In this document: positions 21,101-62,025 of the stretch, piece by piece | How positions within the stretch are numbered: position 1 is the first letter of the stretch | Layout: every line of letters starts with the position of its first letter | Source: Obrimoposthia wandeli | Taxonomy: Eukaryota | DNA length: 64,000 nucleotides | Assembly: GCA_977020255.1 (NCBI GenBank) | Contig: CDROCS010001406.1 | Span: 558,001-622,000, forward strand | Reading direction: 5' to 3' | The notes under the pieces: model-generated | Told to the model about the DNA's origin: nothing | Database searches by the model: none | What the model saw: only the letters and a program-made list of their open reading frames with translations | Program-made: the position numbers and the translations under genes

Positions 21101-24100
21101 TTATTTTGAATTTTGAACCTAGCTAATCTTACTGGAAATAACTTTCAGAAATGTACCAAACACAGACAATGTTAAATAAATTTAGAAATCATCATTGATA
21201 TTTCATTTTTCCTGCTTGTGTCGATTGTTGCCTTGAAACAATCGTTAACAGATATCACTAATGGCTTTGATATCTTGGTAAGATCTCCACGTACGACTGC
21301 AATAAAGAAATGCAACTTTACACTTTTCTTTTTTCATGCCATCAAAGAAGGTGCACTATAATAAATATGACAAGACTTGAGTTTAAAAATGCACCATGTC
21401 CCTTTCACCATATAATGAATATCTCTCCCGTCATCCATCCTTTCTATTTAACGTCTGCAAAAACTTTGTGAGAAAATTTTCTTCAGGCATAGTCTTCTCT
21501 TTGTTTGAAAATAACCATTGGTGCAGCTTTCCACATACTCCTATCTGACAAGGAACAACTGTAAAATTGTATTTTTCAGAACCTATCTTGATAATTTTAA
21601 TGTCCTCTTTGTCTTTCACAGCAAAAGTATAATTACTTGACATATCAAAACTTATTGAAAATTCGTAAAATTACCAATTTGTTTTGTATCACCTGTACAT
21701 GTCTTTCACCCATATATGTTCAGTAAGCTTCTTCTTTCTTTGCCCAATTTTGTGTTTTTTTTTGCTCAATCAAGGTCACACAATGAACGCTAAACATATT
21801 GGACGAAGGATAACTGACCCTTAAATCGCAATATCTAATGAAATTTCTATCGCCTTTGCTTTAAGATTCATGGCAGTTATTCAAACTTGCCGTCCATCTT
21901 TATTAAACAAGATAAGCCACACCCTCATATTTATTTCAAACAAAGGTTAAAATAAAATTCAGTCTCTCCAAGCTCTTTTTGTCGGATTCATAACAGTAGG
22001 TGAATGTGTCCGGTCTAATACACCCCCCTACACCCTGTCCTTTAAAACCGTGTATTTGTGTGGAGTGAAATTTTGAGTATGTGTGTGGAGTGAAATTTCA
22101 TGTATGTGTGTAGAGTGAAATTTCGTGCATGTGTGTAGGGATTTTTTTGTTGTTTTGAAAAAGCAACAAATAGGGAGGGGATTCCCCCCCAACATTTTTT
22201 AAAATTTTACTTTGAAATTTACCGCAGATCTCAAAAGTGATTAGAGAAGACCACAGGAATCCATATTGTCCCCGGCAGCTTATCGCAGATGAGATTTCAA
22301 ATAATATGTGAATATATTACTACTATTTTTAAGAAAGAATAATAAATTATTACATGTTTTTGTTAAATATTTAGGTCAGATCTATATAATTTAGAGGAGA
22401 AAAAACAAAATACGAGTCAAAATTATTTTTCAAAATATTTATTAAACATAAAACAACATATTGGCTTCACTCAAAGTCCAAAGAGGCTGCATTTTCCCGT
22501 CATCAGCAAAATATCCATTGAGACGTATTGAGATATTCCATAGTTCTTCATCTAGAATTGGAGCAATCAAATATCCTAGATCATCTTTAAAAGCCAGACT
22601 GGGATCAGTTTCAAGCTGGAAACAATTTCCTTCATATACATAATCAGGAATGTAAAATCCCAAAATATTTTTCAATTGATCAATATCAGATGTTGTTAAA
22701 ATTTCGATGAGATATTTGTTCTCCACTTTAGATATTTTCACGGGATTCATAACTCGTATAATTTGATGCCTCTTTAATATATTACATAGTTTTCCTTTTG
22801 AAATTCTTTCTGTATAATAAAAATCTCCTACACATCTCAGAAGAGGATCCATTCTAAAATAAGGAAACTGATTAAAAAACAATGTTTATAAAAAAATACA
22901 TATAAGATACAAATATTATGAAAAATAAAACTGATAATTAATTGCAAAATGAAAGAAACATAGATTAAAATTTATTGCATGAAATATTTAAAACATAGAA
23001 ATATGAGCACGTTCAATTTTCCACATAAGCAACTTTGTCCCCATTTCATCTTTCTTGTAACGATAAAGTCGAATTGTTACAGTCCATTGCTTCTTTTTCG
23101 GAAACGCATCAACATCTATTTATCTTCCATACTTCTCTAGAAATCCTGCATCGGCTCCTCGGATATAAAATTCGTTCTTACTGAAAGTAAAATTTGGTAC
23201 TGCTTTTTCAACTTTCTGTTTAAGATATTGAAAATCTGGTTTTTGAATATTTGATAGATAATAGCTGAACTTTCTTCTTTCAATTGTCACGGGATTTACT
23301 AAAGCAATCAGTTGAGCCTTATTCAAGAATCTGACTTTGTATTTGAAATATTATTTCACTTCTTCATACATATCCTTATCCGATTCTTTAAACATTTCTA
23401 AATCTTCGTCATCGCTTAATATCCGTTTGCTATCGTCCATCATTGATAATTGTCTTCTATATGAATGCATTTATTGGGATTTGTCCTCCAATGGCGCATT
23501 CTTTTATACTAATTTCTAACAAAGACATGAATCTCATTGGTTAATATATCTAAAGCATTAATTTGGATTGGACTAAATCCATATTAAAAATCAAAATTGA
23601 TTGGAAGAAATATATCATCCAATTATAATAGGTTTGCAAGATAATTACAAGAAATGTGCAATATAAAAGCAGGTTCAAACATATATAAAGAAGATTTTAC
23701 AGAATACAATTTTAGTTTAATGAAATTCGTAAATATATATTATAAAGGTAGAATAGAAGATGATGCTTCGTACTTACCATTCAATAAATGGAAGCCGAGA
23801 CAATATGTGAAAAAGTTTGACAATTTCACAGTTGTTATTTTACTCGAAGGTTATTTTTTTAGTTTCATATTGAATTCTTTTAGGAAATTGTCGTGTTATG
23901 GGATGCAAAATACTTATGCTTGAGTTCGAATTACCATTTGGAATTCGAATCACTGCAATACAATCAATCACGATTTCGGCTAATCTTGGGAAACAGATAA
24001 ATCTTTTAAAAACTGCAGAGAAAATGAAAGAAGAATGCATGTTTGAACCAAAATTATTTCCTGCTCTCAGTTATTTGAAGTTTAAACCGATATGTGTAAA

Positions 24101-27100
24101 TATATTTTTCAGTGGTAAAGTTATGATATTGGGATTGAAAAATTTTGATTATCCAGACATTGTTGATTTTATTTTCGAAAATATATCTTATTACATCTTG
24201 TTATCTTTTCTATAAACAAACCCGTTTAAACTTATTTTTTCAAATGAATAATACTATAAATACCGACAATCAAGTGGATTGTCTTGTCGACGAAATATTT
24301 TCTGGAAATATTAGGGGTAAAGAAATTTTATCAGAATTAAAAAATAATGATATAACAAGAGATAACATTGAAATATTGATTAGATCACACGTTATTTAAG
24401 AATTTAGAAATCGTACACAAATAAAAAAAACTATAGCCAAATATTCATTAATTAATTTTTGTATTTCATCTACAATAGCTCTAACATTGTACATTTCAAT
24501 AAGGAAACGTATATGATAATATAAACAATATTAAAAATGAAAGAGTATATGCAATGGAGCTAAATAATAATGCTGTATTTCAAATAGTGGGTCTCAGTGG
24601 AAATAGAAAGACACATTTCGTATGTAAATTGTTGCAAAATGAATCTCTTTTCAAATCTAGTTTCAAAAATATTTATTGGCATCATGGTGGAGGAGGGGAA
24701 AGCGGGTTAACCAAAACAGAAGTTTGCAAGTTGAAGGGAATAAAATTTATTGAAGAATTTGATGCAAATTGGTGTGAAAGATTGAAATAAGAAGATGTAA
24801 TAATAATTGATGATTTGTATCAGGAAGCTAACAAGGAATCAGACTTTAATCAATTATTTACGAAGATTGCAAGACATCGTGAAGTAACAGTTATATTTAT
24901 CACTCAAAATCTTTTTCACCAAGGAGGTCATCATAGAACAAGAAATCTTAATGTACATTAATTAGTTTTATTTAAAAATACTAGAGATCAAACAGTTGTA
25001 GATTTCGTAGCCAGACAGACATATCCCCAAAATAAGAACTTTCTAGTTGATTCATTCCATGATGCTGCTAAACAAGTACATGCGTATATATTTATTGACT
25101 TCACACAAGCTTGTCCAGATGATTTACGTGTTTTAACATACATATTTAATTCTAAGGGAGTAACTGTTTATAAACAAATAGAGAACAATTATAAAAAAAT
25201 AATTTGCAATGCCTTTTAAGAAGTTGATAGTAAAACGTAAAGTAAAATCTAAGAAATAAAAAAAAAGAATCATTAAGAAAAAAGAAGTGAATAAATTAAT
25301 CAAATCTGTAGTTAGAAATAAAAGAAAACTTAAATGGCTTCGAATATAAACAATATTCAAATTGAACTTTTTTAAAAATGAAGAAAATACAAAGAAGCAT
25401 ACCCTATTTTAAAGCTTTGGTCAAAGCCTCTTCTCACAAGAGAATGATTATTCTTAAAGTATTTCCTTCTTTTGTTGTAGATGATTTATTGGAAGTTTTG
25501 TATAATATAGTTTTGGGTCGAGTAAAATTTGGAAAACGGAAAAATGTATTAAAGAAATATAGAAAAACTCTTCTAGATATTGATAATGTAAAAAGTAAAA
25601 AACGGAAACGAAATATTATTCTTAAACAGAATGGTGGTTTCATACGGGCTGTTATTCCAGTTGTTGCTTCAATTATCAATAGTATTATAGCTGCGACACG
25701 TTCATAAACAATTATTTCAAAAATCAGTTAAAGATATGGGTGCTAACCCTTCTTTACCTAAATTTAAATTTTCTATATATTCAAATTGTTGTAATGGAGA
25801 AGACATGGTTCAATCTAAAAGATCCAATTGGCTACACAATAGCTTCAAAATTAGCACAAAGAACAAAACAAAATTACAAGAAAACGCAGAAATGGCTGAG
25901 CGACCAGTTAGCCTACAGTCTGAACAAGCCGATGAGAAGAAAGTTTACAACTAGAGCTTACAAAACTAGCGGTCCTAATAATTTATGGCAAATGGATTTG
26001 ATGGAGATGATCTCATATTCTTCCATTAATAAGGGATATCGATATATTTTAACATGTATTGATTTATTTAATAGGTTTGCTCGTGCAATTCCAGATAAAG
26101 CAAAGTCTTCAATAGCTTTGCTTGAAGCCATTAAAGAAATATTAAAAGAGGACATTCCACAAAATGTGCAAACTGATTCAGGAAAAGAATTTTATAATAA
26201 GCAATTTTAATCTTTATTTAAACAAAATAATATAAATCACTACTCTGTGTTTTCACAGTACAAACCAGCAATAGTAGAAAGATTTAATCGTACTTTAAGA
26301 GATCGAATAAAAATTTATATCACAAAAGGAGTAAATAAAAAAGGGATCCAAGTTTTACCTAAAATAATACATGCATATAATCACTCTGAACATAGAGGTC
26401 TCAAGGGAATGAGACCTTTTGATGTTACTAATAAAAACTCTATGGATATTTGGATGGACAGGAATAAAAAAAAACTATTAAAAAAGCTAAATATAAGAAA
26501 AACGAATATGTCCGAATTTCGAAAATTAGCTCTACTTCATTTATTAAAAACTTTTATCAGAATTGGAGCGATGAAATATTTTGTATAAGTAAAATTGATC
26601 AAAAGAGTAATCCAATAATGTATACTATTAAAGATGCTGACAATAATATCGTTCACGGTAAATTTTACGAGCAAGAACTACAAGTAATATCAAATAAACC
26701 TAGCGTTTTCCGTATTCAAAAAATATTAAAATCTAAGAGTACCGGTAAATATAAACAATACTTTGTTAAATGGCATGGTTATTCAGACCCAACTTGAATA
26801 TCAGCATCTAATATAATATGGAGTCTATGTAAATGGTGTTACCTAGTAACGGATGCCCGAAAACTCAACCAGATAATGACACTAGTAGCTTTATTATCGA
26901 ATAGGAAAATCCTATAAATCTCCAAGGAGAATGGAAAGCGGCTTTAACAGAATTTTCTTTTATTATTCTCTAATTACTATCAGAAAAAACTCACATATTT
27001 CGTTTACAAAATAATTTGATCATGAAAAAACAACTGAAGTTGTGATCGGGTTTGATAGTAAAGGAAATTTCAATTACAATTGTATAGATAAAGAAGTGAA

Positions 27101-30100
27101 AGTTACATATGAAAATAACAAAGTCAGATTTTAAAATAGATTAAAATTTCTTCAAGCTATTAAAATTACATTTGAATCTGAAAAAGAAGCTCTTCAATTC
27201 AGTTTTGATAGTGAACAAACAGTATCTCGTAATAGACGGGATGTAGTCTCATCTAAATCGGTTAGAAATGTTCCTGATAGTGTAGCAAAAGTGTTGTTAC
27301 TTGAAACGAGACCAAAGACTGTAGTGGAACTGAAAATGTTTTCAAAATATTATAAAATAGATAGTGAAGTGGATTTATGTATATTAATACAGTAGGAATG
27401 TAGTGAATATTTGTTCAAATGTATGTTCAAATAAAAGTACTAAATCGGGATGGTACTAATTTAGATGAAAATGCAGATGTAACACCTGTAAATTATCTCT
27501 TTAATTCTGTATTTAGTGATGCCATTGTTACTCTTAATAATGTCAAAATTGAAGGTGGAAATTCTTCCTATGCTCATAAAGCTTTGATTGAAAGTCTTTT
27601 GAATTATAGTACTGATACTCAAAATACTAATTTGGCAACTATTGGTTATGATAAAACGGTCGCAACTAGCAAAGAATGGATTGCAGGTTCTAAAGCTTAC
27701 GAAATGTGTGGGTATTTGAGATTGAATTTCTTTGAACAACCAAAATATTTAATTCCCGGTGTTAATGTACATCTTCGTTTGAAACGTAATAAATGGAATT
27801 TTTCTTTGATAAGCACAGACGTTCTAAAACCTAGACTTGATATTTTGGATGGAAAATTGTATGTCCGAAGAGTTAAAACCGAGCAATCAGTTTTAATGGC
27901 ACATAATATAGGAATGGAAAAAAACAATGCTTGTTATCCTATTAGAGAAACTAAACTTATATCCTACTCTTTAGGTACGGGTACACAAGCTTTTAATAAG
28001 GATCAAATTTTTGGTGATGTAAGATTACCGAAATTCATTTTAATTTCTTTTCAAAAAACTGCAAAGTATCTAGGAAATTATGCGACAGATGTAACTCAAT
28101 TTGACAATCTTAATGTAGGTTCAGTGACACTTTCAAGAAATACTGATTATCGCGAAACATATAAAACAGATTTCGAAGGTAACACTTATGCTTTGGCTTA
28201 TACGCAATCTATTATTCGGAATTTGGGTCAACTAGATAAAAATATAAACAATGGTATTTCTTTCACTGAGTTTAAAAGTAGCTGCCCGTTCTTCACATTT
28301 GTTTTGGCACCAGACTTTGATATAAACTAATGCCAACTACCAAAGGATGGAAATTTACGACTAGAAATTAAGTTCAATGCAGCTTTAACACATCCTACTA
28401 CGGTGCTTATTTACGGAGTATTTGATTCGGAAATACAAATCAATAAAAACAGAACTGTCATATTATAGAATGGAGTAAGACAATTTTTAATTTATATTTA
28501 TTAATTTTTATTTAGTTTAGTACAAGTACAAGAATCAGCAGAGAAAGTCTTGGGTGATAAATTCAATGGAGTTTATCCAATTGATATGATTCCATTTTTT
28601 CAATCTGGAGGATACATTATCAATACTCATACTTCGAATTTATCAGGAGAACATTGGATAGCTATTTATGTTAGAGAGTGGACAATACATGTATTTGATC
28701 CACTTGCAATGTATTATCCACACAAACTTGTTTCAACTATTCAAAAAGGACGAAGAAGAGTATTTTACAACAAGATACAATATCAGGATCCTACGACGAG
28801 AAACTGTGGAAATTTATGAATTTTATGGTTATCGTTGCAAAACGATTAATGTGTTATAATAATAAATATTTTTAATGTTTTATTTTGAATTATTTTTGAA
28901 ATCCCTAAAAAATATAAGGGTAAAATAATAAAAGACATAAAACGAAATTTTTTAATACATTTATTCAGCAAAATATCACAACGAGATATGCCAGTAAAGA
29001 TAAGGCCCAACCTAAAAAAAGTATTGAAATTACAAAAAGTTAGTCAAGGTGCCATAGGGATCTAAAATTTAAAAAAACTAAACTAAAAAAAATCAAAAAA
29101 TGAAAACCGTTTAAATTCGGAAGTGTCCATAAGCCAGGCTAGCGTTCTTTCTACTCAAAAGCGCTTGTCGTCATTACTACTCAAAGCGATTTTTGTTGAT
29201 TTATGGGAATACAGTTGATGGGCTCTTGAAATAAATCTAGTTTGCTCAACGCTTTGAATACACCCAGTATCATAAATTTTCCGGTAGGCCTCATGTGTAA
29301 GATTGTTTCTTCCCACACCCTTTGCTCTCATTGAACATGTATTATTAGATGCATGTAAAGTGTAGCATTCAAGACGTAGGAAAATACAATCATCATACGA
29401 AACCTGTCCCTCGCTTTCCTCCTTAAATTTCCCGATAATATCCTTTAAACTGATAGAGTGTAGAGGATGGTTAGCGGAATATTTATGGGTATCTAGTCCC
29501 TAAACATTGCCAGTAATAAATGATTATCTAAACTAACATTTTTACATTCTAAAAAGAAAGAGTCAGTGTCCCCAGCTGCGATTTTGATCTCACAATTGAA
29601 TTCTTGTCGATATTTCTCTAATTCTAGGTATTGAAGCTCGTACATTCTGAGTTTAGAAATGTCTAAAACCGTCTGACCTATATAACTCGGTAAACCGTAG
29701 ACAAATACGTTTCTGCAAGTCCTCTACAGTTTTTCCAAAGAGACTATTACTTTTTAACTTGTAAAAATTCCCAATCGAATTTGCTAGTGGCCAAATTACG
29801 TCTTCTAGAATTCTTCTCAATATAATCTTTAAACACAAAGTTTTGACTGAAGCTTATAGCACGATGAATTCGAGTGACTTTCGCTCCCAACTTTAAGTAG
29901 AATTGAAGAAGCCGCCAATGCATCACATAATTTAAATTGTCTTCATGTGTTAACAATAATTTCTTAACCTTTGAATTAGGTGGGCATTGATGAACAGGCG
30001 CTACTGGAAGATCATCTAATTTATCATGCACATTGGGAGGGATTTTTAAGTCAACCTCAACCAAATAGCCGACGTCTGATGAAACTGTATCAACAGTAGC

Positions 30101-31653
30101 CAAATCTGTCATCAATTTATTCAACTCTTCCTCATCATAAACCCACTTAAAGTTGGCATGAGGTAGAGGTTGAGTAAGCGCCCACTCATACAAATTATTA
30201 ATGTCGATGTACAGAATCTCCGTGGATTGATTTTTGACAATATGATGTTTGTTGACAAACGTCATTCCACCGCGTATACCATAATCATACATTTGATACA
30301 TCGTGGGATCTTGCAGTAACTCGATATTAATTTTAAGATTTTGTTATTGCTGTTGCCCATGAAAGACCAGGTAAACTAAAGAAATGCATGGGATCTAGCC
30401 CATCTTCTGCTAAAGATTTTACACGAAAGGACTCAAAAACATCAGCTAAAAGATAAATGTCTAACTTCATATAATAAAGCATATATTCTAAAAGATTTTG
30501 AAAATTATTCTCCCAAAATGTACGGGCCTCATTATAGTTTTGAAGACTTACACCCTCAAATTCAGTTATGGTGGGATTTCTGTAGTATTTTCTAAATCTG
30601 CAAAGATTTTCGCAAATTTATACGGAAAAATCCCCTTATCGTTAACCGAAGCTGGAAACACTGACTGTGTAATTGGCCATGCATTTAAAGATGCCGTTAA
30701 ATTTTGTAAAGACCCACTCAAAAACTGCAGAGAATCTATGAATCTAAAACTACAGAATTCAGTATATGCAGTTAAAGATAAATATTTCTCTGAAGTTTGA
30801 GGTATACATGAAATTTCCCAAGAGCTTAATGTACCCAACGCGTATTTAAGTATATGATGAAAATCATATCCTTTGAGATTATGAAACACGATGGGAATGC
30901 GTGATTTTTTAGGGAGACGACGGCCAAATTTACAAAGGTTGCACGCCGCTCCCAAGTATCACCCCGTAACATGATCGTGATATCTGACTAACATAGACTG
31001 GGTTCCACACAAATAACATAATATACAAGAATTACAATTAACCCAGTCTATGCCTGTCATGATCATTGCTTGATGAGCATTAAGATCATACCACGGTTTG
31101 ACAATTGTAGTTCCTAATTCTTCTAATTTTAACATAAAATCTAAAATACAATTTGGACCGAAACATTTATGATACTGTGTAATATTGGGGCCTAAGAATA
31201 GTATTCCTGCTGAAGCCGGTAGGTGAATACTCACATACTGGCCGAGCAATGCTAGAATTGACTCAAAATCCGCATACACCCTGAATTCCACGGGTATGCA
31301 TTTTGCCCAATCCCTGAATTTTAAATCCTTGTCCTTAGGCATGCTATATAGCGTACTGTCATCAGGAATCAGTGTACATAATGTCAGATGTTTGTTGTAA
31401 GAGATCTCGGATTGGAATCCATGCAAACATATATGACACCACTTACACCTTATCCTAACCGGTAAGGCTCCATTATCTAAATTTAGAAGACGATCTAAAT
31501 TGGGAATTGCAGCATAATGGAATTTTTTATTATGTTCGAGCAAAATTAAGTTGAGCTGAGTCCCCTCATTTTTGCTCCTATAAATTACATCTACAAAAAG
31601 GATTTTCTTTTTAATTTCTTCATCTGTTACATTAACTGGGATATCAGTATTAT

Positions 31654-31725
<72 letters not shown>

Positions 31726-34700
31726 CAAACATTATCTTCATCTGTTACATTAACTGGGATATCAGTTTTATATTTGAATACATTTATACTCAAGTTATTA
31801 GCGTGTTCAAATCTTGATATCGCAGTTAATTTAACAGGAAAATATATTCCATGATACTGCAATTCATTTAAAAAAGGGATATATTTACTGACACGCTATC
31901 TATGCTCAGTAATTACATCCCTTTTGAGGATGGCCAACACGCTATACAGAAAGCAAAGGTTATCACTGTTTTGTATGTTAACATTGGAACGTGAAAATTG
32001 AAGAGATCTGTAAAGGACTGTATGAACTCCCCGAAAGATATATAATGTCAGTGAACTTTGTAAGAACAAAGCTAACATCGTGAATTCTAACTAGAGTCCA
32101 TCCACTACTTAACTCGCTATAATTAGCAATTTTTTCATCTAGGTTTCTCCCAATTTCAGTTACAAAATTATCATAGAAAACAGTTGCTTTATGTGAAATT
32201 ACCCAAGTTTAAAATAAATGATGTCTAACCTCATTCGTCGCTTTTATTCTCCTAACAGCATGTATCGGAGATTTCGGCCTTTTGAAGGGTTTAGGCGTTG
32301 TATTATCCGCTTTCGGAGTTGGAGTAGCAGAGGGAGTGAGACCATCCCAATCGTCGGTGAACAGGTCCCACTCGTCCTCGTCCAATTCTGCCACCATCGA
32401 CTCGTTGGCTCCTGGGGCTCCGATACTTGGCTGTATCCATTCGTCGATGAATGTAGTCCAGTCTCCCTCCCCATCCAACGGTACGTCATCGGTGAGCAGC
32501 TCCTCGTCTGAGTCTGGTGCGAGGACTTTCTCTGGCTGAGACAGCGGGATCAATTTCCGGTGGCGTTTGATTGCCGCCTCAAAATTGTCGAAGATATTGG
32601 ATCTCCTTGCTGCTACTGCCGAAGTTGCTGAACAAGCGGTTTCTGTGTTCTGGCGGGGAGTACAGTCTTCCCAATTCTCAATCGAATTCTGACTTGTCAG
32701 GTCAAAATATTGGGATCTCTGTAACCCATCTCTCATGTTCATTGGTTCTTCTCTAGGAATTGAGCTGGCCAATGGCGGTTCTTCTTGTAACAGGTCCGCT
32801 GTTGCTGCTGCTTCTCCTTCACTCACCATCGACGAGTCTTGACTAAGTAAGTCAATGTACTGCGCCTGTGGTGGTGTTCGCTGCTGTACTGGAGAGAGAT
32901 CCTCATATAGTTGAACCTCTTGATTCAAATCGACGTTGTTGTAGAATGGCATTGTTGAATTAGGAAAATTAATGAACGGAGGTGTCTTTATATACACAAA
33001 CATCTTACTAACCCTCTTTTATCGTCCAATGAGCGCGACTTATTCAAATAATTTATTTTATTTTTTGTAGTTATTTTCGCGCCCGGAGAACGAGAATAGA
33101 GCCCGCTCCGAAGGGGTGGGCGGTGTGCGGGGTTGATGGGGTTGTGGGGTGTGGTATGTGTCGTATACATGTGTGGTTGTCATTGTGATTGGATAAAGTG
33201 AAAGAAATATACTGTAGCGTCCGGAGGGCATTATTTTTTGTAGTTATTTTCACGCCCGGAAAACGAGAATAAAGCCCGCCCCAAATATTTTGGGACCCCC
33301 AACCCCTTATATTCGTTGCTTTTTCAATTTTTTTTTAATTCGCTACACACATGCACGGTTTTAAAGGACAGTGGTACCCCAAGGTGGGTGGATTAGACCG
33401 GACACATCCACCTACTCATAACTTTTAAAGTTTTCTGTTTCTTCCTCCATAGTCGAGCATTGTTCTCATTTTTTCATGTTTTATCGTTGTCACAATGAAC
33501 TTCACAATTATCAAATTTCTTTCAAACGAATATGATTGTCAATGTTTTTTTTATATTCAATGGTGATTAATATTTATCAATAATAATTTTCAAAATTACC
33601 TTAAGTAAAGTTTTACATTAAGTTAAGTTTTAATTTAATAAAATTTTAATGTACATTATGCAATCGCGTGTTTTATAGAAGGAATTTAGGATATATTATT
33701 TATTAATTCTATGTTATTCATGAATTTGACCAATACAATATTAAAATAAATATTTAAACACACTTTTTAATCTTTCTAAATTTGACCAATATTTTTATAC
33801 CCTTTTTCAAAGTTCATTGCTCATTGTATCATATGCATGTGTATCTAATGATCAAACTAGTTTTAAGTTTTATTTTATTTGGGATTATTTTGAAGTCAAA
33901 CTCCGCTCCCATTGGCATCAATCTTCCCAAATTTCAGTGGAATCAGAAAACAGATGCTGAAAAGCCGATATTCTATTCGCATATATGGATTCCCTTCACT
34001 ATGAAGCTGCCCGTTGGCTTCTGGGAGACACATGGGAATATGGTGGCCTTTGTTGTTCATAGAGACTGGTCGAAGATACTGCAAACGGCGGTTCTAGTGA
34101 CGAAGAACGGATTGGTCTACCACGGCCGCGGGATGGGTGACCTTGTGGTGTTGGGTGTGAATGGCGACTCGCTGAACCGACAAGCAGCGGGCTTGAGTGG
34201 CAAGATATCATTCTCGGAACTGGCAGGACATTTCACTTTCTCCGTGGTGCCACTGAACTGGCCCTCTAGATTTCTCGTTGGCACATCGCAGCTTCTGAAA
34301 ACGAGGCTGCCACATAAGTACTTCTTCAAGAATCTTCTGCTAGAGCGCTTAGAAATGAACAGACAAGCGTCAATCTACAATGCCAATTTGATAATCCATC
34401 GATCAAACGTCTTTATTGACAATATTCGCACAATTTCCCAGAATGTCAAAGTGACGATATTTTTAGCTATTCCTGTTGCGATTGTCATAGTTTTTGGTGT
34501 GGTCATGTTCATCTCGTGGATTTTGTCTATTGTCAGATACTGTCGATTATTGAAGATAGTTCAACGAGGCACCGTAAATACAATTCAGTTATAATTTTCA
34601 CTTTAGTGATTGATTTCGTGGGAAAATATTAAATATTTTTATTTCTTCAACTTTGAGATTCTACACGTAAATTAAATATATTTTTATATTATAAGAGTTT

Positions 34701-37700
34701 GGAAAATAAATATGTAAATACGCGTGTGACATTTTTTCATTATTTTACAGAAAAAATATATAGCTAAAACATTAGAAGTAAGTTTAAATAAACAGTTCTA
34801 TTTGCAAATGATATTAGCTTCGACTTGAGCTGGTCTAAATGATCCATTCACTTCATAGTTATATAAATTTATCAATAATCCAAATTATTGTCAAAGTTAA
34901 ATAATAAATCTTAAAACATAAGTTCCATCAATTTTGCACCCAAGGTGTAATAAAGTATTTATGGTGACTTAAATAAAAATATAAAAGTTTTAATTCATAA
35001 TTATGCAACTTGACCATTCAAAATATTTGAATTTTCTTTCCATTGTAAATTTAATAATAAATCTGTTTGTTCAGAACATTATACATCACCAAAATAAAGC
35101 TTAAATTATTGAGTAAAATTAAGGTTTAAATTTTTGATAACTTTGAAACATTTTACTAAAATAATTTAACTAACTAGGAAGTAAAACAGAAATGGGATTC
35201 TAAATAAAATATACTGAATGATCCCTATAAAAATGAATATTTTTATACTATTTAGCTTTTAAATATCATTAGTTAAATTTAACATTTTCAACATTAAAAA
35301 AAGAAAGTTTTCCTTCATCTTCTCTAACTTGTGTTCTATTCATAGCATCAAATTTCATAGATTTTGGGAGGAATGCCCTGCTTGTTATGCACACTCATAA
35401 ATTAGAGAGAGGCCATCATTGCTCACAAACTGGTTCGACAAGCACCACCCAGTCGCACACACGCACACATACCGGGCAGCATCAGCCATAATTAAGCAGC
35501 CACTGGGGACTTGTGTCAGTTAATTAATCGCCGACGATCAAACAGCTGTTTCCACTCCCCAAATTTTGTCAAGCTTCGAAAAACTTAGCTCGTCTCCAGA
35601 AACTTGGCCCAGCAATTAACCTCTTCAATAAACTCAAAATGGCTTTAAAATAAAATATTAATGAATAATAATTTGTGCACATTTAAGTACGATTTATGGA
35701 AAACATACATGTGGAAAACAAACCGTCCTTCGAAACCGTAAAAATAATTAATAAACACTTTAACAGAAATATTTCAAAGTAAATAATTCTCATAAGTGGG
35801 AAATTCCCACACACAGGCCTTACATGTATAATTTCACAATTTACAACCGGAATTTCTAATGAGAAACAGTTATGATTATTAAAAGCTGGTATTTTTGCAT
35901 TTGAGGACGGAAAATATCCGTCTGAAGCTGTTAGAAAATACTCAATTTCAAAAATGAATAAGAAAAATGGGGATAAACGATATCCATCAAAGTGCTGAAC
36001 TTAATAACAAAATCTCAAAATAGTGCATCACTATAACCCTAAAAAACTTATTTTTAACAATATTAAACTTCACAACTTAACCCAGGTATTTTAAAAATAT
36101 ACGATTAGTGATTTTATTGTTAAAACGAAAAATCCAAAAAGAGAACAAAATTAGTATGAAAAGACGTAAATGTATATTTAATTTTTCTGTGTTCTGAATC
36201 TTTTGAATTTCTCGACTAGCCAATCCTGATTACTTCTCACAGACAGTGGATCTTTGGCAGCGGTACGACACCAGTTACATAATAGTGAGGAACGTCAGCA
36301 ACAGTTGTTAGGAGAAGCTGCGGATCTGGGACTCTTGTTACGCAAGACTGACTACGACAAAAGAGTTGAGGTGAGTCTCTCATCGTCACTTCTAAAAGCT
36401 CGGAACAATAACGGCCACTTGACCAGGCAGTTCTTATTTTCTATATTGCAGATTTGTACTGTGATCCTCAACTTTCCTGTTTTCATTACAGGAAGCCAGT
36501 GGCAAGCGAGAGCAGTTAGTCCAGCAGAAGCAAGAGGCTGTGGCAACTGAGAACCACATCCGCACAATTAGATCGGAGAAGAGGTTGCTGATGAGTCAGA
36601 TAGAAGAACGACGGCAGTCAGAGAATGACAACCTTAATCATATCAAGGTTAGAATTGCTGGAAGTATTTTTGCATATTGTGGTATATATGAATGTTGGAT
36701 TATTGGATTAAAAACCAGTTTCATTCACTAACTACTGTATACTCTGACTTACCGTCTCCCGAGCAGGGTTCTCTGCGGAACGAGAAAGAGCGTGAGCAAC
36801 GTCTGTATCAGCAGATGAGCGAAGCAGCTAAGCAAATACAGCAGCAGTCCATCACAATCAACCGACTTCATGCTACTCTACAAGAGAAGGAAGCAGTAGA
36901 CTCTGTGCGCATCAATTCGGAAATCCGACAGACCCACCAGCAGCGAGATTTACTCACCAATCAACTTCTTCGTGAGCAGGCCCGTCTTAAAGAGGTTGAT
37001 TGCAAAATATTCATTTTCGAATTTAACCTCTATTGGGTTCATGTTCTAAATCTGGAACATGAAATAGAATTTTACTTTTTGTTCAGTTAAAAAGCATAAA
37101 ACCCTCACTAAATATTTGAAGACAACAACTTAATTTCATTTTAGCACTAAATACAGAATGATACACGCAAAATTTACACAGCCAACACAATTTTTTGTTA
37201 ATAATAATTGTTACCCGAACAAGTATACTGATAACATTAAAAATATGATGCAAATGGTAGTAGATGCCGTAATTAGAAAAATGTAACCGGTAAAAATAAA
37301 TGATGGACCCGTTTAGTATAGTTTTTCAATAGTAAAAATTGCAACAAAAAATATGAACAGCTCCATAAATTGCGATACTGTATTTTTGTATTAATCCTTC
37401 AAGTAACGGTTCTAATAATAATGATATATTTAGTTTATTTGCATCACTTAGCAGTAATTTTGAAACAAAATATCATATTTGTATATTTTATATTATTCAG
37501 TTTCAAAGAGTTAACAAGTTCAAAACTAGCACGTTTCTAGGCGTCAGTTTGTTTATTTTATGCTATTTAAATATTTATATATCCAATAATATACCGTAAA
37601 TTTGCATGTACAAGGCGCACCCTTTTACATATTTTTATAAATAAATTAGGGGCTGCGCTTTAAACGTGTATCGAACGTGTAAACATATCGAAAATTCCTA

Positions 37701-40700: not shown

Positions 40701-43700
40701 AGATATTTATTAAAGAATTTATTTTAAAAATTCGATACTGTACATAGTACCTTTATATTTCTAGCTCCCCGATCAATAATTTGTCTGCATATTGGATAAG
40801 TTATTAATTTTCTTGAACATGTTAAACATGTTTTCAAATGACTTCTGGGGAGAAATATGATTTCTTAGAAGAAATTTGACTTCTACATCATCAGTTAAAC
40901 ATACTCAACATTCAGGATATTCTAACATGTATGATAAAATATTAACAAATTGTTTATCCGGTTCTATAATTAAGTATGATAGATCAAACAATAAACCTAC
41001 AATTGATTTAAAATCACATTCAGTTCTCAATCTATAATTTGAAACCGACTTTATTCTTTCTTTTTTGAAATTTATTTTCATTTAAACAACCTGAGAATTT
41101 ATTTCCAATTTGTTTATCGGTTATACGATGTTCAATAATACAATCAATATAATTTTTAAGTGAAAGTTCTCTCCATGGGACATTTTAAACTTTCATATTC
41201 ATAATAAATGAGGAACATGTTTACTATGACGTGACATCGGTTTATTATCAAATTGCCTACATGAACCACATTGACTAAATACACAAAATACTTCATCATC
41301 AGGTTTCGATTTATTATGTTTAGATAATCCGGCCTTTGCTAATTCACTTGAAAAAGTATTGGATTTAAAATTTAAGATCAATGAGGAATATGTATTCACT
41401 TCTAATCTATACATGTATCATATTTAACTTGCATTTTTAAATATTTCATCTTTCTTGTAGTTTAATGGTCAATTACAGTTCTATAATAAATTTTATTTTC
41501 TACTAAACCATCACTTCTCATTTAAGACGATATTTATAGAAAAAACCAGTATCTTTTAAATTATTGACATAACATCATAATAATAATCCCTATCTTAAGT
41601 CCTACAATTATAACCTTTCCACTGGAGAATATGTTGACACATAATGGATTATATTTATTTACTCGGAGTGAAGGGAATAATTCCAGTTATAATATAAAAC
41701 CTGGTCCTAGTTTCATTGATAATTGATATTAATTGTCTTTCTTTCCAACAACCATAGTTACTGTAACTGATTGAATTCTTTCTATTTACATCGCATTCTT
41801 CGACAACTTCCTAAAAATAAATATCAATAATTATATCCCAAAGAGAACATACCTGATTTGAAAATAACTAAAGTATAATCTGCATACTTTTTTATATTGA
41901 CTTATAAACATCCACTGCCGTTGAGGAGTAACCAGGATTGGCTAGTCGATAAATTCAAAATATTCAGAACAGAAAAAAAATTAAATACACATCTGACAAA
42001 TTAACGCATTACACAAACTTCTAAAATTTATGTGTTTACAAAATAATTTTTTCCTCTCTTTGGATTTTACGTTTCAACAATAAAATCCCAATTCGTGAAT
42101 TTTTAAAATATCTGGGTTCAGCACATTTGATGGATATGGCTGAACTCCTTTTCTCTTAATCCTTTTTGAAATTGAGTATTTCCTTACAGCTTCAGACGGA
42201 GATTTACCGTCAAATGCAAAATACCAGCTTTTAATAATCATAACTGTTTCTTATTAGAATTTCCGTTTGTAAATTGTGAAATTATACATGTAAGGCCTTT
42301 GTGTGGGAATTTCCCACTTATGAGAACTATTTCCTTTGACATCTGTTATTTTTGTCGTGTTTGAGACTCAATAACATACGAATGTGAAATATAATGTTGA
42401 TCGGGATATCGGGTTACAATGGGCCTTTGTTTGATTTTGAAACAGATCTAATTTTCTTTACTTTGAAATATTTCTGTTAAAGTGTTTTTATTGATTATTT
42501 TTACAGTTTGGAGGGACGGTATGTTTTCCATGCGGTGATAAAACATGATAAATCGTACTTAAATGTGCAAAAATTATTATTCATTAATATTGTAGTTTAA
42601 AGCCATTTCGAGTTTGGGGAGTGGAAACAGCGGTTTGATAGTCAGCGATTAATTAACTGACCCAAGTCCCCAGTGGCTGCTTAATTTTTGCTGATGCTGC
42701 CCGGTATATGTGCGGGTGTGTGACTGGGCGATGGTGCTTGTCGAATCAGTTTGTGAGCAATGATGGCCTCTCTTTGAGTTATGAGTGTGCATAAGGGTGT
42801 CAATGTTTTTAATTTTTTATGAATCTAATTTCAGCTGTTGGATATTTATAAATAGAATTTAAAATTATGAATGGTGATGTGTTTATTTTTTATTTTAATT
42901 CATTAGATCAGCAGCGTTCGAGTATTTAAAAAGCACATTTATATTAAAAGATATCATATTTAAATATTAAACTCCATGAATAATATTGCTTTAAATATGA
43001 ATATTTCAATTCAATTAAACTTATAAATATTCATTTTTATAGGGTTCATTCAGTATATTTTATTGAGAATCCCATTTCTGTTTTACTTCCTAGTTAGTTA
43101 AATTATTTTAGTAAAATGATTCAAAGTAATCAAAATTTTAAACCGTAAATTTACTCTATATTTTAAGTTTTATTTTAGTGATGTATAATGTTCTGAATAA
43201 AGATATTTATTATTAAATTTACAATGGAACGAATATTCAAATATTATGAAAGGTCAAGCGACATAATTATGATTAACACCTTTTAAATTTTTATTTAAGA
43301 TTAATTAACTGACCCAAGTCCCCAGTGGCTGCTTAATTTTTGCTGATGCTGCCCGGTATATGTGCGGGTGTGTGACTGGGCGATGGTGCTTGTCGAACCA
43401 GTTTGTGAGCAATGATGGCCTCTCTTTGAGTTATGAGTGTGCATGAGGGTGTCAATGTTTTTAATTTTTTATGAATCTAATTTCAGCTGTTGGATATTTA
43501 TAAATAGAATTTAAAATTATGAATGGTGATGTGTTTATTTTTTATTTTAATTTATTAGATCAGCAGCGTTCGAGTATTTAAAAAGCACATTTATATTAAA
43601 AGATATCATATTTAAATATTAAACTCCATGAATAATATTGCTTTAAATATGAATATTTCAATTCAATTAAACTTACAAATATTCATCAGTCAACTTTAAA

Positions 43701-49700: not shown

Positions 49701-50554
49701 AAGATGATCTTAAAGGTTTGAAGATTGTGAAATGGAGTTATCAAATAAGGACCGAGGTTCTTGAAAAGGAAGCCTCAAAGAAATATTTACATACTAAACG
49801 CAATCATCCGTTACGACATTTGAAAGTATCCAAATCAGTCACCATGAATCACATTAAAGCGATTGACTTGGTAAAAAGAGGGACACATGGGAACGGACAA
49901 TTTTCAAAAAAGATCCTGATTCGATATAAAAGTGTTGTTTCTTGAAGGTTTGGTAACATGTGACAAAAGGTGTATAAAATACGATAAAAGAAAGCGCTCA
50001 GAACAGTGAATAGAAAAAGACCATTGAACCAGTATTTAATGCTAACTACATCATTGTTCCATATGGGTATTGTTCATCATAAATATTTGGAACCAGTTCT
50101 ACGTTCAATAGAGAAAGGATTGTATGGAATTTGAAGAAATGCGTAAATATTTCAAACTTGTGTCCGTTGGTGATTAATAGAAAAGGATCTTTATTTCGGC
50201 ATGACAATACCAGACGCCCTATTTCAAAAACAAACTACTCGAAGCTGAATGCTGTAGATTATGAAGTTATGCCCCATCATCCCTATTGGCTCAACTTAGA
50301 TCAAACATAATACCATTTCTTCAAAGATTGAGTGAAAATTATACAAACTTTTTGAATATGTGACATTTGCTGAAGCCACAAGGGGAGCGGACAAGTACAA
50401 TTTGCATTCCTGTTTGCATGTCAGCTATAGTATCTTACTTTCTGATTCTGAGAGAGACGGGAACTCGTAGATGTGTTCTACTGTGTTTTCAGATTCCGGC
50501 ATGATGAATCCGAAGTCAAAATCGAAGCTCTTCAGAAGCCGTTCCTTGAAGTAG
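103..50554 (+). CDS. Multi-exon coiled-coil protein of unknown family (5' end probably upstream of window)
   Basis: Exons chained by hand with AG/GT boundaries and matching phases: 103-286, 5175-5283, 6114-6211, 8049-8128, 11547-11655, 12120-12217, 17084-17158, 18270-18370, 36243-36370, 36492-36647, 36767-36994, 39184-39325, 50493-50554 (TAG). Translation is E/K/Q/R-rich (e.g. [16 protein letters not shown]; [36 protein letters not shown]; [27 protein letters not shown]) and ends [19 protein letters not shown]. Extra exons may have been missed. Confidence 0.75.
503..715. repeat. Fold-back (inverted repeat), ~62-bp arms, MITE-like
   Basis: 503-564 (gtaataaaactcagatcgaactgaaggtttgcaagtaagttgtgatcgatgtctggccacca) is the near reverse complement of 654-715; spacer ~89 bp; no clear TSD. 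Confidence 0.8.
4363..4460 (+). mobile_element. tRNA-derived SINE head / tRNA pseudogene
   Basis: A-box-like tgtagtgatag and B-box ggttcaattcc, followed by gggtcgtggccactaattttctctcaaactta, which is shared with the copy at ~5370-5465. Confidence 0.55.
5370..5465 (-). mobile_element. tRNA-derived SINE head, second copy (inverted)
   Basis: Minus strand reads ggttcaaaccccggttgtggcatctaatttttcctcaacctaa: B-box plus the same tail as 4363-4460. Confidence 0.5.
6851..7273. mobile_element. hAT-type MITE (423 bp)
   Basis: Imperfect TIRs cagggcctgtgagag / ctcttacaggcctg; perfect 8-bp TSD ATGATGAA at 6843-6850 and 7274-7281. Confidence 0.85.
9608..9848. repeat. Tandem repeat, 79-bp unit x3
   Basis: Unit beginning atacttcataaatttagtcc recurs at 9608, 9687 and 9766, almost identical. 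Confidence 0.9.
10857..11350 (+). pseudogene. Tc1/mariner-like transposase relic
   Basis: Fragment [29 protein letters not shown] (~11255-11345) resembles the first catalytic Asp motif (ILWTDEAxF) of Tc1-like transposases; degraded. Confidence 0.45.
14160..15285 (+). pseudogene. Tigger/pogo (DDE_1) transposase relic
   Basis: [18 protein letters not shown] (~14236-14290) matches the NxDETGLFYRALP motif; acidic C-terminal tail in ORF 14798-15232; TIR-like end ...gacaagttacactgta near 15282. Confidence 0.6.
21190..21988 (-). pseudogene. pogo-like transposase relic, 3' part (left of the Maverick)
   Basis: [34 protein letters not shown] and [23 protein letters not shown] match pogo DDE motifs (FDM..TG.EK..FTV; IPGGLT..LQPLD.SVN.PFK). 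Confidence 0.75.
21995..22064. repeat. Left TIR of Maverick
   Basis: Imperfect inverted match to 33345-33416, with a diverged C-rich middle. Confidence 0.9.
22051..22140. repeat. Subterminal tandem repeat, 25-bp unit x3.6
   Basis: tgtatttgtgtggagtgaaattttg / agtatgtgtgtggagtgaaatttca / tgtatgtgtgtagagtgaaatttcg / tgcatgtgtgtaggg. Confidence 0.9.
22442..22852 (-). CDS. Maverick accessory ORF of unknown function (paralogue A)
   Basis: Open frame [13 protein letters not shown]...[32 protein letters not shown], about 136 aa from the ATG at 22852. Confidence 0.65.
   Translation of the reverse strand: MDPLLRCVGDFYYTERISKGKLCNILKRHQIIRVMNPVKISKVENKYLIEILTTSDIDQLKNILGFYIPDYVYEGNCFQLETDPSLAFKDDLGYLIAPILDEELWNISIRLNGYFADDGKMQPLWTLSEANMLFYV
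22985..23520 (-). pseudogene. Maverick accessory ORF with in-frame stops (paralogue B)
   Basis: One frame through several stops: ...[49 protein letters not shown]...[50 protein letters not shown]. Confidence 0.55.
23720..24215 (+). CDS. TBP-like (TATA-box-binding protein fold) protein carried by the Maverick; exons 23720-23849 and 23884-24215
   Basis: Second repeat [34 protein letters not shown]...IFENI aligns with eukaryotic TBP [33 protein letters not shown]...AFENI. Splicing out GT..AG 23850-23883 gives [16 protein letters not shown], in register with TBP repeat 1 TALIFSSGKMVCTGAK. An upstream in-frame ATG exists at 23654. Confidence 0.85.
24244..24399 (+). CDS. Small Maverick ORF, unknown function
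   Basis: [51 protein letters not shown], between the TBP-like gene and the ATPase, on the same strand. Confidence 0.4.
   Translation: MNNTINTDNQVDCLVDEIFSGNIRGKEILSELKNNDITRDNIEILIRSHVI
24554..25219 (+). pseudogene. Genome-packaging ATPase (A32/FtsK-like), in-frame stops
   Basis: Walker A-like [10 protein letters not shown], Walker [24 protein letters not shown] and LVLFKNTRD; stops at about 24788 and 24960. Confidence 0.92.
25209..25349 (+). pseudogene. Small highly basic protein (putative DNA-condensing core protein)
   Basis: [45 protein letters not shown]; one internal stop. Confidence 0.5.
25378..25707 (+). CDS. Basic virion core protein with adenain-type cleavage site (adenovirus pX/pVII-like)
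   Basis: K/R-rich body ending KQNGG|[17 protein letters not shown]; GG|hydrophobic motif then an amphipathic helix, as in adenoviral pX precursors. Confidence 0.75.
   Translation: MKKIQRSIPYFKALVKASSHKRMIILKVFPSFVVDDLLEVLYNIVLGRVKFGKRKNVLKKYRKTLLDIDNVKSKKRKRNIILKQNGGFIRAVIPVVASIINSIIAATRS
25736..25954 (+). CDS. Overprinted small ORF with N-myristoylation consensus
   Basis: MGANPS (MGxxxS) plus a CC pair; 72 codons open, overlapping the integrase 5' end in another frame. Confidence 0.45.
   Translation: MGANPSLPKFKFSIYSNCCNGEDMVQSKRSNWLHNSFKISTKNKTKLQENAEMAERPVSLQSEQADEKKVYN
25794..26817 (+). pseudogene. Retroviral-like (c-int) integrase with C-terminal chromodomain-like region
   Basis: WQMDL (D1), [18 protein letters not shown] (D2), [10 protein letters not shown] (E); later GKFYEQEL and YFVKWHGY; stop at 26208 and a frameshift near 26500. 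Confidence 0.95.
26818..27395 (+). pseudogene. Minor capsid (penton-like) protein, truncated
   Basis: [46 protein letters not shown] matches the LPSN...P.N...F....I.L.G.W..AL.E N-terminus of Polinton minor capsid proteins. Confidence 0.75.
27419..28468 (+). pseudogene. Major capsid protein (double jelly-roll, PY), N-terminus deleted, one in-frame stop
   Basis: [19 protein letters not shown]...[14 protein letters not shown]; [14 protein letters not shown]; after the TAA at 28328-28330 the frame continues [37 protein letters not shown]. Confidence 0.9.
28470..28849 (+). pseudogene. Adenain-like cysteine maturation protease; exons 28470-28474 and 28516-28849
   Basis: Catalytic motifs GEHW, FDPL, QYQ, NCG; TGA at 28817-28819. 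A 41-nt GTAAG...TTTAG intron (28475-28515) gives [25 protein letters not shown]. Confidence 0.88.
29111..32207 (-). pseudogene. Protein-primed family B DNA polymerase (pPolB), endonuclease VII-like Zn-finger type
   Basis: SSGWTL..GSSY; [16 protein letters not shown]; C2H2-like [12 protein letters not shown]; CYLC..HDHVTG..ACNLC; exonuclease [17 protein letters not shown]; polymerase [38 protein letters not shown]. Several stops and frameshifts, plus an internal deletion near 29690. Confidence 0.95.
31617..31776. repeat. (AAT)21 microsatellite insertion flanked by a 42-bp direct duplication
   Basis: 31617-31658 equals 31735-31776 with one mismatch; (att)21 at 31661-31723; period 118 bp shifts the pPolB frame. 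Confidence 0.9.
32209..33003 (-). CDS. Acidic, low-complexity Maverick protein upstream of pPolB (activator-like, or pPolB N-terminal extension)
   Basis: Uninterrupted 264-codon, GC-richer ORF; D/E/W-rich blocks [10 protein letters not shown] and [13 protein letters not shown]; repeated YIDLLSQDS / YFDLTSQNS; basic tail KPFKRPK. Confidence 0.7.
   Translation of the reverse strand: MFVYIKTPPFINFPNSTMPFYNNVDLNQEVQLYEDLSPVQQRTPPQAQYIDLLSQDSSMVSEGEAAATADLLQEEPPLASSIPREEPMNMRDGLQRSQYFDLTSQNSIENWEDCTPRQNTETACSATSAVAARRSNIFDNFEAAIKRHRKLIPLSQPEKVLAPDSDEELLTDDVPLDGEGDWTTFIDEWIQPSIGAPGANESMVAELDEDEWDLFTDDWDGLTPSATPTPKADNTTPKPFKRPKSPIHAVRRIKATNEVRHHLF
33026..33279 (-). promoter_or_regulatory. Putative promoter of the acidic-ORF/pPolB unit: 49-bp direct repeats with E2F-like site, GC box, CCAAT boxes
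   Basis: Repeats 33058-33106 and 33231-33279 (3 mismatches); TTTCGCGC at 33075-33082; GGGCGG at 33118-33123; ccaat at 33026 and attgg at 33188. Confidence 0.5.
33345..33416. repeat. Right TIR of Maverick
   Basis: Ends ...gattagaccggacacatccacctact, followed by the TSD cataac. Confidence 0.9.
33423..33510 (-). pseudogene. pogo-like transposase relic, 5' part (right of the Maverick)
   Basis: Minus strand [17 protein letters not shown] joins across the TSD in frame to NPTKRAWR at 21988, resembling the pogo N-terminal HTH (VRRWRKQ..L). Confidence 0.65.
33833..34594 (+). CDS. Intronless predicted type I membrane protein, unknown family
   Basis: Hydrophobic N-terminus [19 protein letters not shown] (signal-like), ~180-aa Cys-free ectodomain, TM segment [28 protein letters not shown] then basic RYCRLLK; open frame, GC above its flanks. 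Confidence 0.65.
   Translation: MHVYLMIKLVLSFILFGIILKSNSAPIGINLPKFQWNQKTDAEKPIFYSHIWIPFTMKLPVGFWETHGNMVAFVVHRDWSKILQTAVLVTKNGLVYHGRGMGDLVVLGVNGDSLNRQAAGLSGKISFSELAGHFTFSVVPLNWPSRFLVGTSQLLKTRLPHKYFFKNLLLERLEMNRQASIYNANLIIHRSNVFIDNIRTISQNVKVTIFLAIPVAIVIVFGVVMFISWILSIVRYCRLLKIVQRGTVNTIQL
34968..36251 (+). repeat. Copy A of ~1.3-kb inverted duplication
   Basis: Blocks such as ggccatcattgctcacaaactggttcgacaagcacca and gtgggaaattcccacac match the reverse complement of 41910-43298. Confidence 0.85.
37594..37996. mobile_element. pogo/Tc1-mariner-type MITE (403 bp)
   Basis: 27-bp TIRs ccgtaaatttgcatgtacaaggcgcac / gtgcgccttgtacatgcgaatttacgg (1 mismatch), TA TSD, subterminal tgcgccttatac repeats. 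Confidence 0.9.
40753..41414 (-). pseudogene. IAP-like (BIR + RING) pseudogene, antisense in an intron
   Basis: BIR-like RL..TY...ELAKAGL...DEVFCVFS...[14 protein letters not shown]; RING-like [14 protein letters not shown]...[22 protein letters not shown] (compare IAP CKVC.D.EV.IVF.PCGHLV.C..CA..L..CPICR..I). Confidence 0.7.
41910..43298 (-). repeat. Copy B of inverted duplication
   Basis: Reverse complement of 34968-36251 with indels, extending through the splice-acceptor region (gactagccaatcctg) and cagtggat. Confidence 0.85.
43299..43686. repeat. 388-bp near-identical direct duplicate of 42647-43034
   Basis: Both start gattaattaactgacccaagtcc and end aaatattcat; offset 652 bp; few mismatches. 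Confidence 0.9.
45384..45991 (-). mobile_element. piggyBac-like non-autonomous element
   Basis: TTAA|ccctttaac...gttaaagg|TTAA; minus-strand relic [30 protein letters not shown] resembles the piggyBac C-terminal Cys-rich domain. Confidence 0.55.
49700..50340 (+). pseudogene. mariner transposase relic
   Basis: [15 protein letters not shown]...[20 protein letters not shown] matches mariner LHDNARPH...EVLPHPPYSPDLAP.DYHFF. Confidence 0.7.
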
Positions 50555-61500: not shown

Positions 61501-62025
61501 TTTGGCTACAATCTGAATCGGAGTCTCGAATTTATCAGCGAAGAAACTCAGCGCAGCTTCGATCTCGTCAAGATCCGGAAATTGGAGTTCCTGATGATGC
61601 AAACGAACCTGTCTCACTGGCTGGAGCGCTTCTGTGAGTTGACGAAGGCAGAACTTGATGAGCAGGACTGTCTGCTGGTATTGAGCATTGTCTCCAAGCT
61701 GGATGTGTTGCCGCCCGATTCGTGTGAGACAATCGCTGGCACCATGAAGACAGCAACAAGTCGGGCCAAGCTTTGTCTCAACGAATTTTTCAACTACGAC
61801 CAGCAGAAAATCTCCGACTGTCTCAGTCAAATCACTGAGCTGCGCTGTCCTCGATGCACGTCACTGTGTGACTTCAATCTCTTCTGGTTGCATTGCAGCA
61901 AGGGTCACAAGCTCAAGCGCTGCATCAAGACGCTGGAGCTTTGTGCAGACAAACATCGCCAGTGTTTGAACTGTGGTGCATCGGAGCTAGCCTTTGACCT
62001 CGTCAATACAAGTGAGTCTTTTTAA
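58591..62025 (+). CDS. GTF3C4: General transcription factor IIIC 90-kDa subunit-like (TFIIIC-delta N-terminus + C-terminal Zn finger)
   Basis: Phase-consistent exons 58591-58861, 58918-59035, 59078-59156, 60342-60380, 60436-62025; IEWSP..KEFLAIMKGDGRI motif; C-terminal CPRC...HCSKGHKLKRCIKTLELC...CLNC matches the zf-TFIIIC pattern. Confidence 0.72.

Follow-up and report, generated by a model that had tools for sequence, protein, structure and literature searches.

Mavericks (Polintons) of animals, the adintovirus-like ones among them, carry terminal inverted repeats (TIRs), a 6-bp target-site duplication (TSD), a protein-primed DNA polymerase B (pPolB), an rve integrase, an A32-type ATPase and a double jelly-roll (DJR) capsid protein. 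Intact vertebrate Mavericks are reported to lack introns in the part of the study available to us (PMC8097293), and the accessible text on nematode Mavericks describes intronless core genes together with intron-containing cargo such as wasp proteases and KRMA kinases, which is presented as host-derived (10.1101/2022.07.12.499685). For dinoflagellate Maverick/Polinton-like proviruses, the available portion of one report describes introners, that is, spliceosomal introns in full-length elements (PMC11957031). Genes resembling that of the TATA-binding protein (TBP) are named in figure legends of the work of Starrett et al. on adintoviruses (PMC8502044; 10.1101/697771). Here we analyse a stretch of 64 kb from Obrimoposthia wandeli (contig CDROCS010001406.1, positions 558,001 to 622,000; "the window"), which harbours a Maverick whose TBP-like gene is interrupted by 34 nt. 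According to our proposal, with a probability of roughly 0.88, this segment is a genuine short spliceosomal intron of the element family; its excision by the spliceosome of the host would leave a predicted mini-TBP of about 154 residues.

The element shares all of the above animal hallmarks, and with its TIRs and 6-bp TSD it has the ends expected of a Maverick/Polinton. It departs from the intronless genes of the vertebrate elements (PMC8097293, as far as the accessible text goes) and of the nematode core in that a family-wide, element-borne gene has a likely intron. Whereas the nematode cargo is described as host-derived in the portion of that source at hand, the TBP-like gene belongs to a conserved Maverick family and is intronless at 40 of 41 loci. 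In contrast to dinoflagellate introners, the two likely introns discussed below (34 and 40 nt) are unrelated to each other, and the 34-nt one shows no sign of being a repeated transposon; judging from an UNC119-type gene and from the kind of element, the host is an animal. What is new is thus a likely intron in a Maverick's own TBP-like gene; Maverick TBP-like genes and intron-bearing cargo were known. In our literature searches, which excluded supplements, Repbase and subscription journals, an intron in the TBP gene of a Maverick did not come up.

The structure of the TBP-like gene, two exons separated by the 34-nt segment, is strongly supported. A profile of 30 family homologs places columns 1–42 on 23720–23842 in one frame and columns 45–147 on 23883–24188 in the next, leaving 40 nt for two columns and hence exactly 34 extra bases. 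The segment starts with GT, ends with AG and consists of T to 62%; these ends fall in the register required by the homologous protein, as expected of a U2-type intron, and 23850 is the sole register for a 34-nt GT..AG segment within 20 nt on either side. Pyrimidines occupy 10 of the 15 positions before the AG, compared with 8–13 of 15 in candidate introns of the host. When the gene is read unspliced, a stop is reached at 23921–23923. No introner-type copy of the segment was detected elsewhere within the 64-kb window (best match 25/34, compared with 23 for shuffled sequences).

An earlier, sequence-only reading, which made no mention of a decayed Maverick copy as the carrier of the gene, had proposed this intron in TBP repeat 1 from two out-of-frame open reading frames (ORFs), 23654–23923 and 23898–24215. 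Both ORFs are present and overlap, and the latter has a Pfam TBP match (E 1.8e-11) whereas the former has none; the start at 23654 has to be given up, since the homologous start is 23720, farther downstream. The claim that the join restores the strand spacing of TBP holds for the spacing but not for the residues, as Leu and Glu precede the junction where the family has Phe (29/30) and Ser/Thr/Asn (28/30). The same reading had regarded the coincidence of frame, spacing and canonical ends as improbable. Within the element, a 34-nt GT..AG pair arises by chance at 0.23% per register and at 4.6% for any of 20 registers, so that the argument is of moderate weight and the window copy by itself is suggestive, not decisive.

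The intron proposal gains from a second locus. Scans with the alignment of the 30 homologs yielded 43 loci (42 from metagenomes plus L043), and among the 41 covering the site only L028, a distant Maverick, is split, at the same place as the window. There, a 40-nt GT..AG segment (L028:376–415) splits the same glycine codon after its first base, likewise in an AG|G context. Its interior resembles that of the window segment no better than 2000 shuffles do (p=0.54), whereas the flanks compared in register are 53% identical over 45 nt upstream and 77% over 30 nt downstream, and protein identity is 61% (731 columns). In L028 the ATPase and the integrase have open frames of 227 and 364 aa, respectively; the recorded TBP-like protein of this locus (P0165) is a 53-residue fragment. 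Unrelated sequences that share their position and have splice ends, as these two do, have the appearance of an intron and would be hard to obtain by random insertion (~1e-5 per insertion, 1/450 x 0.0033). AG occupies the last two exon positions in both intron-bearing genes but in only 4 of the 22 scored intronless loci, a pattern that would fit proto-splice-site gain or selection on the donor. Between its TBP-like gene and ATPase, L028 also bears a RING-finger (C3HC4) gene (L028:1665–2171).

Copies of the same family were studied in runs X1 and X2, of which 95,965 and 78,941 contigs, respectively, aligned to 23000–25300. Depth at position 23862 amounts to 89,114 (X1) and 786,963 (X2), lower than in neighbouring bins; the segment is thus covered and not private to the window copy. 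About 99% of this depth carries another letter at 23862, which identifies the internal AG of the window segment as a private change. Behind 23841, 43 (X1) and 97 (X2) contigs lose their match to the window; their consensus has a GT at the offset of 23850, preceded by AG and followed by a T-run that differs from the window's. At 23878, a length variant of one base accounts for 16% (X1) and 12% (X2) of the depth. No joint skipping the 34 nt was seen among the 15 listed of 565 joints, some joints being uncounted. The sequence-only reading had suggested looking for copies with kept ends and a drifting interior, and this is what L028 (interior no closer than shuffles) and the same-family contigs (donor position kept, length varying inside) display. 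It had also named a lack of the segment in intact copies as the mark of a private insertion: the segment is indeed missing from most distant relatives, but not from the same family, so that we regard it as a lineage-restricted intron. Across 23000–25300, depths of 0.2–3.4 million per bin, which are sums and not copy numbers, suggest that Mavericks have expanded massively in organism A (X1/X2).

Could the segment instead be unspliced junk or loop DNA, inserted once in the ancestor of a non-autonomous or dying subfamily, with a broken gene and a merely coincidental resemblance in its GT..AG ends and in L028? The many breaks in the window copy, the 4.6% chance of a GT..AG pair, the absence of the segment from most relatives and the poor family fit of the residues just ahead of the junction would agree with such an event. 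Nevertheless we consider it very unlikely, given the unrelated GT..AG segment at the same base of L028, a locus with open ATPase and integrase, the low expectation per random insertion calculated above, and a donor position that is kept in divergent family copies. Moreover, insertions of at least 3 residues near the site are absent from 159 family proteins and from the 40 continuous loci.

The host genome is that of an AT-rich eukaryote with very short introns of its own. Its UNC119 gene (~50400–51929) contains a 38-nt GT..AG intron (51732–51769, minus strand), and the joint sets exons 1 and 2 in register with human UNC119B. The host introns of 56, 42 and 55 nt that the sequence-only reading had adduced are present as GT..AG candidates (58862–58917, 59036–59077 and 60381–60435) that were placed by eye. 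They lie in the gene at 58591–62025, with T-rich interiors and varied donors, including GTCACA, GTGATT and, in the 55-nt candidate, GTAAGT. This host gene has a weak TFIIIC-delta (GTF3C4-like) match and, besides the three short candidate introns, one long GC-rich exon. The 34-nt intron lies just under the host range found (38–56 nt).

Several observations weigh against an intron or limit what can be concluded. Its 34 nt fall short of the shortest host intron found (38 nt), and its donor GTTATT is unlike the canonical GTAAGT of the 55-nt host candidate. Across the site, 127 of the 159 family proteins are continuous and without intron; besides the window copy, 41 loci cover it, of which 40 have neither intron nor insertion, or, with lineages defined at 80% identity, 29 of 30. 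X1 and X2 represent one sample of unknown kind, perhaps the window's own source, and a 1-nt deletion at the coding site 24008, which makes up 12% of the depth in X1 and 0 in X2, implies that X1 indels may be errors. For the family copies the comparison covers 40 of 280 substitution rows, so that conservation of GT and AG, acceptor included, is at most probable. As a decayed copy, the window element is by itself unable to show selection. In the best four-gene tree (14 rows), L028 does not group as sister to the window, and this pairing is recovered in 0 of 200 bootstrap trees. Finally, the data on 23850–23883 are DNA sequences, from which splicing is likely, and the binding of the promoter motif described below and the recruitment of TFIIB by the mini-TBP are putative.

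The tree also bears on the origin of the intron. Two origins are not forced by any starred branch, and the approximately unbiased (AU) test does not reject a single one (p=0.12). This result would also agree with capture of a host TBP gene together with its intron, followed by loss of the intron in most Mavericks, and host-derived, intron-containing cargo is documented for nematode Mavericks in the accessible part of that report (10.1101/2022.07.12.499685). Such a history is very unlikely in our view. As the outgroup loci L035–L037 and L041 are intronless, it would need many losses. The intron positions of human TBP also differ from the Maverick site. Furthermore, the four cestode TBP intron positions tabulated in the available part of PMC13134418 do not include this site. 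It is therefore likely that the intron was gained within Mavericks, once or twice.

The TBP-like family comprises proteins of ~150 residues, with 159 unique members in the 266 proteins retrieved. Among the metagenome loci (n = 42), 23 yielded a match to a further gene of the Maverick in the window (the remaining 19 are mostly short contigs), and L043 likewise carries other genes of this element beside the TBP-like gene; from this co-occurrence the TBP-like gene can be considered a regular Maverick gene. The Maverick at L043, whose TBP-like gene is intronless and accompanied by ATPase, integrase and capsid genes, lies on a contig filed as a bacterial metagenome-assembled genome, likely mis-binned eukaryotic DNA.

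The family matches the TBP profile (PF00352) with a probability of 99.8, and a two-repeat saddle as in cellular TBP is predicted for intronless homologs. TBP has four intercalating Phe and two central Asn residues, and its acidic repeat-2 stirrup serves TFIIB. Three of the Phe columns are kept in 29–30 of the 30 family rows, whereas the first Phe of repeat 1 is absent; the second central Asn column (repeat 2) is Ser in all 30. Glu residues form the acidic stirrup in 30/30 and 29/30 rows, the window copy deviating at the second. Compared with cellular TBP (~180 aa), the family proteins are shorter and lack one helix, the long one after repeat 1. The family protein may thus work like TBP, TATA binding being predicted, yet it is not a canonical TBP.

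The motif TATAAACA is enriched in the element (plus strand: 24211, 24520, 25169, 25345, 26750 and 28243; minus strand: 22890 and 25172) and often lies 33–40 nt ahead of ORF starts, which makes it a candidate late promoter. The TBP-like gene itself has no TATAAACA in front. According to the mechanism we propose, host polymerase II would transcribe this gene in the nucleus, and the intron would be spliced by intron definition, as with the 38–56-nt introns of the host. The mini-TBP would then bind TATAAACA ~33–40 nt before the packaging and virion genes, recruit host TFIIB through the conserved acidic stirrup and serve these genes as an early-to-late switch. As a trait of the family, the intron would have arisen at an AG|G site at a time when Mavericks already carried the gene.

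A stronger form of the same proposal, and not an alternative to it, would be that splicing is regulated by tissue or stage and thereby turns the late genes on and off, much as the Drosophila P element controls its transposase through its third intron. Both introns are 3n+1 in length (34 and 40 nt), so that retention kills the product, and their donors look non-canonical; moreover, the only intron seen in the element lies within the one predicted regulator, itself without the motif in front. On the other hand, a random length would be out of frame in two cases out of three anyway, 29 of 30 lineages manage without the intron, and donors also vary among the host candidates, which is why we rate such regulation as unlikely. 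Even bolder, and quite unlikely, would be the idea that a tiny, frame-shifting intron arose independently in two distant Maverick lineages, at one and the same AG|G site of their own TBP gene, because it is of use: splicing under host control would gate the mini-TBP and with it the entire late programme (packaging and virion genes) in a P-element-like manner. If true, there would be a splicing switch in a virus-like transposon.

The features of the element are compiled in Table 1. All four Maverick hallmark genes are present, and all are interrupted in this copy, which is decayed and probably inactive. The ORF following the capsid gene is presumably a protease gene, given its position and the usual Maverick gene order. 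No intron was seen by eye in the polymerase gene, which contains a 42-nt duplication around an (AAT)n run of ~85 nt (31617–31776). The region before the capsid gene (27135–27419) is shorter than in L009, and relatives match the capsid only from residue 61, which suggests an internal deletion in the window copy. Two minus-strand ORFs of the element (22442–22885 and 23120–23470) point away from the TBP-like gene; they have no Pfam match, and weak homologs occur in L006, L008, L009 and L010.

Table 1. Coordinates of the element, its genes and its motifs in the window.
Feature	Position	Strand	Evidence
Left 6-bp TSD	21989-21994	.	identical hexamer at 33417-33422
Maverick/Polinton, 11,422 bp, decayed copy	21995-33416	.	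TIR pair; pPolB, rve integrase, DJR capsid and A32-type ATPase matches; stops, frameshifts
Left TIR core	21995-22029	.	91% complementary to 33382-33416
Predicted exon 1 of TBP-like gene (most of TBP repeat 1)	23720-23849	+	profile columns 1-42; tblastn with L009 protein
Putative phase-1 spliceosomal intron (GT..AG, AG|G context), 34 nt	23850-23883	+	profile gap; L028 same-site segment; family copies
Predicted exon 2 of TBP-like gene (end of repeat 1, repeat 2)	23884-24215	+	Pfam TBP E 1.8e-11; profile columns 45-147
TATAAACA motif, 33 nt before ATG of small ORF	24211-24218	+	motif scan
TATAAACA motif, 34 nt before ATPase-homologous start	24520-24527	+	motif scan
Packaging ATPase, two in-frame stops	24554-25219	+	74% identity to open L028 ATPase; L028 protein matches Pox_A32 above cut-off
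TATAAACA motif, 33 nt before ORF 25378-25707	25345-25352	+	motif scan
rve integrase, stops and one frameshift	25794-26818	+	Pfam rve E 3.6e-9
DJR major capsid protein with a single stop; relatives' first ~60 residues unmatched	27419-28459	+	Pfam match below cut-off; 55% identity to L009 capsid
Protease-like ORF after capsid gene	28505-28819	+	position; Pfam match absent
pPolB, in pieces, several frameshifts	29155-33018	-	Pfam DNA_pol_B_2 E 2.2e-10
Right TIR core	33382-33416	.	paired with 21995-22029
Right 6-bp TSD	33417-33422	.	identical hexamer at 21989-21994

Outside the element, a 253-aa ORF with hydrophobic ends and no Pfam match (33833–34594) lies just beyond the right TIR. A degenerate inverted duplication of >1 kb (34968–36255 and 41906–43598) surrounds a coiled-coil gene fragment (36230–37090), and a direct repeat with a period of 652 nt spans 42647–43598. 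A remnant at 55791–57583 matches DUF1759, a domain of Bel/Pao-type long terminal repeat retrotransposons.

Where Mavericks are judged intact on the assumption that they are free of introns, a 34-nt intron makes a working gene resemble a frameshift, and it stays hidden from ORF-based screens, as the 53-residue fragment recorded for L028 illustrates. A host-type intron argues for nuclear transcription by host polymerase II, and since it sits in the only predicted transcription factor of the element, it provides a cheap marker of Maverick expression for reverse transcription PCR. For studies of intron gain, a family of many copies in which a single site has or lacks the intron also offers material. 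If the intron is real, the predicted gene switch of the element would depend on the splicing machinery of the host, which would tie host splicing to the poorly known life cycle of Mavericks in a way open to testing.
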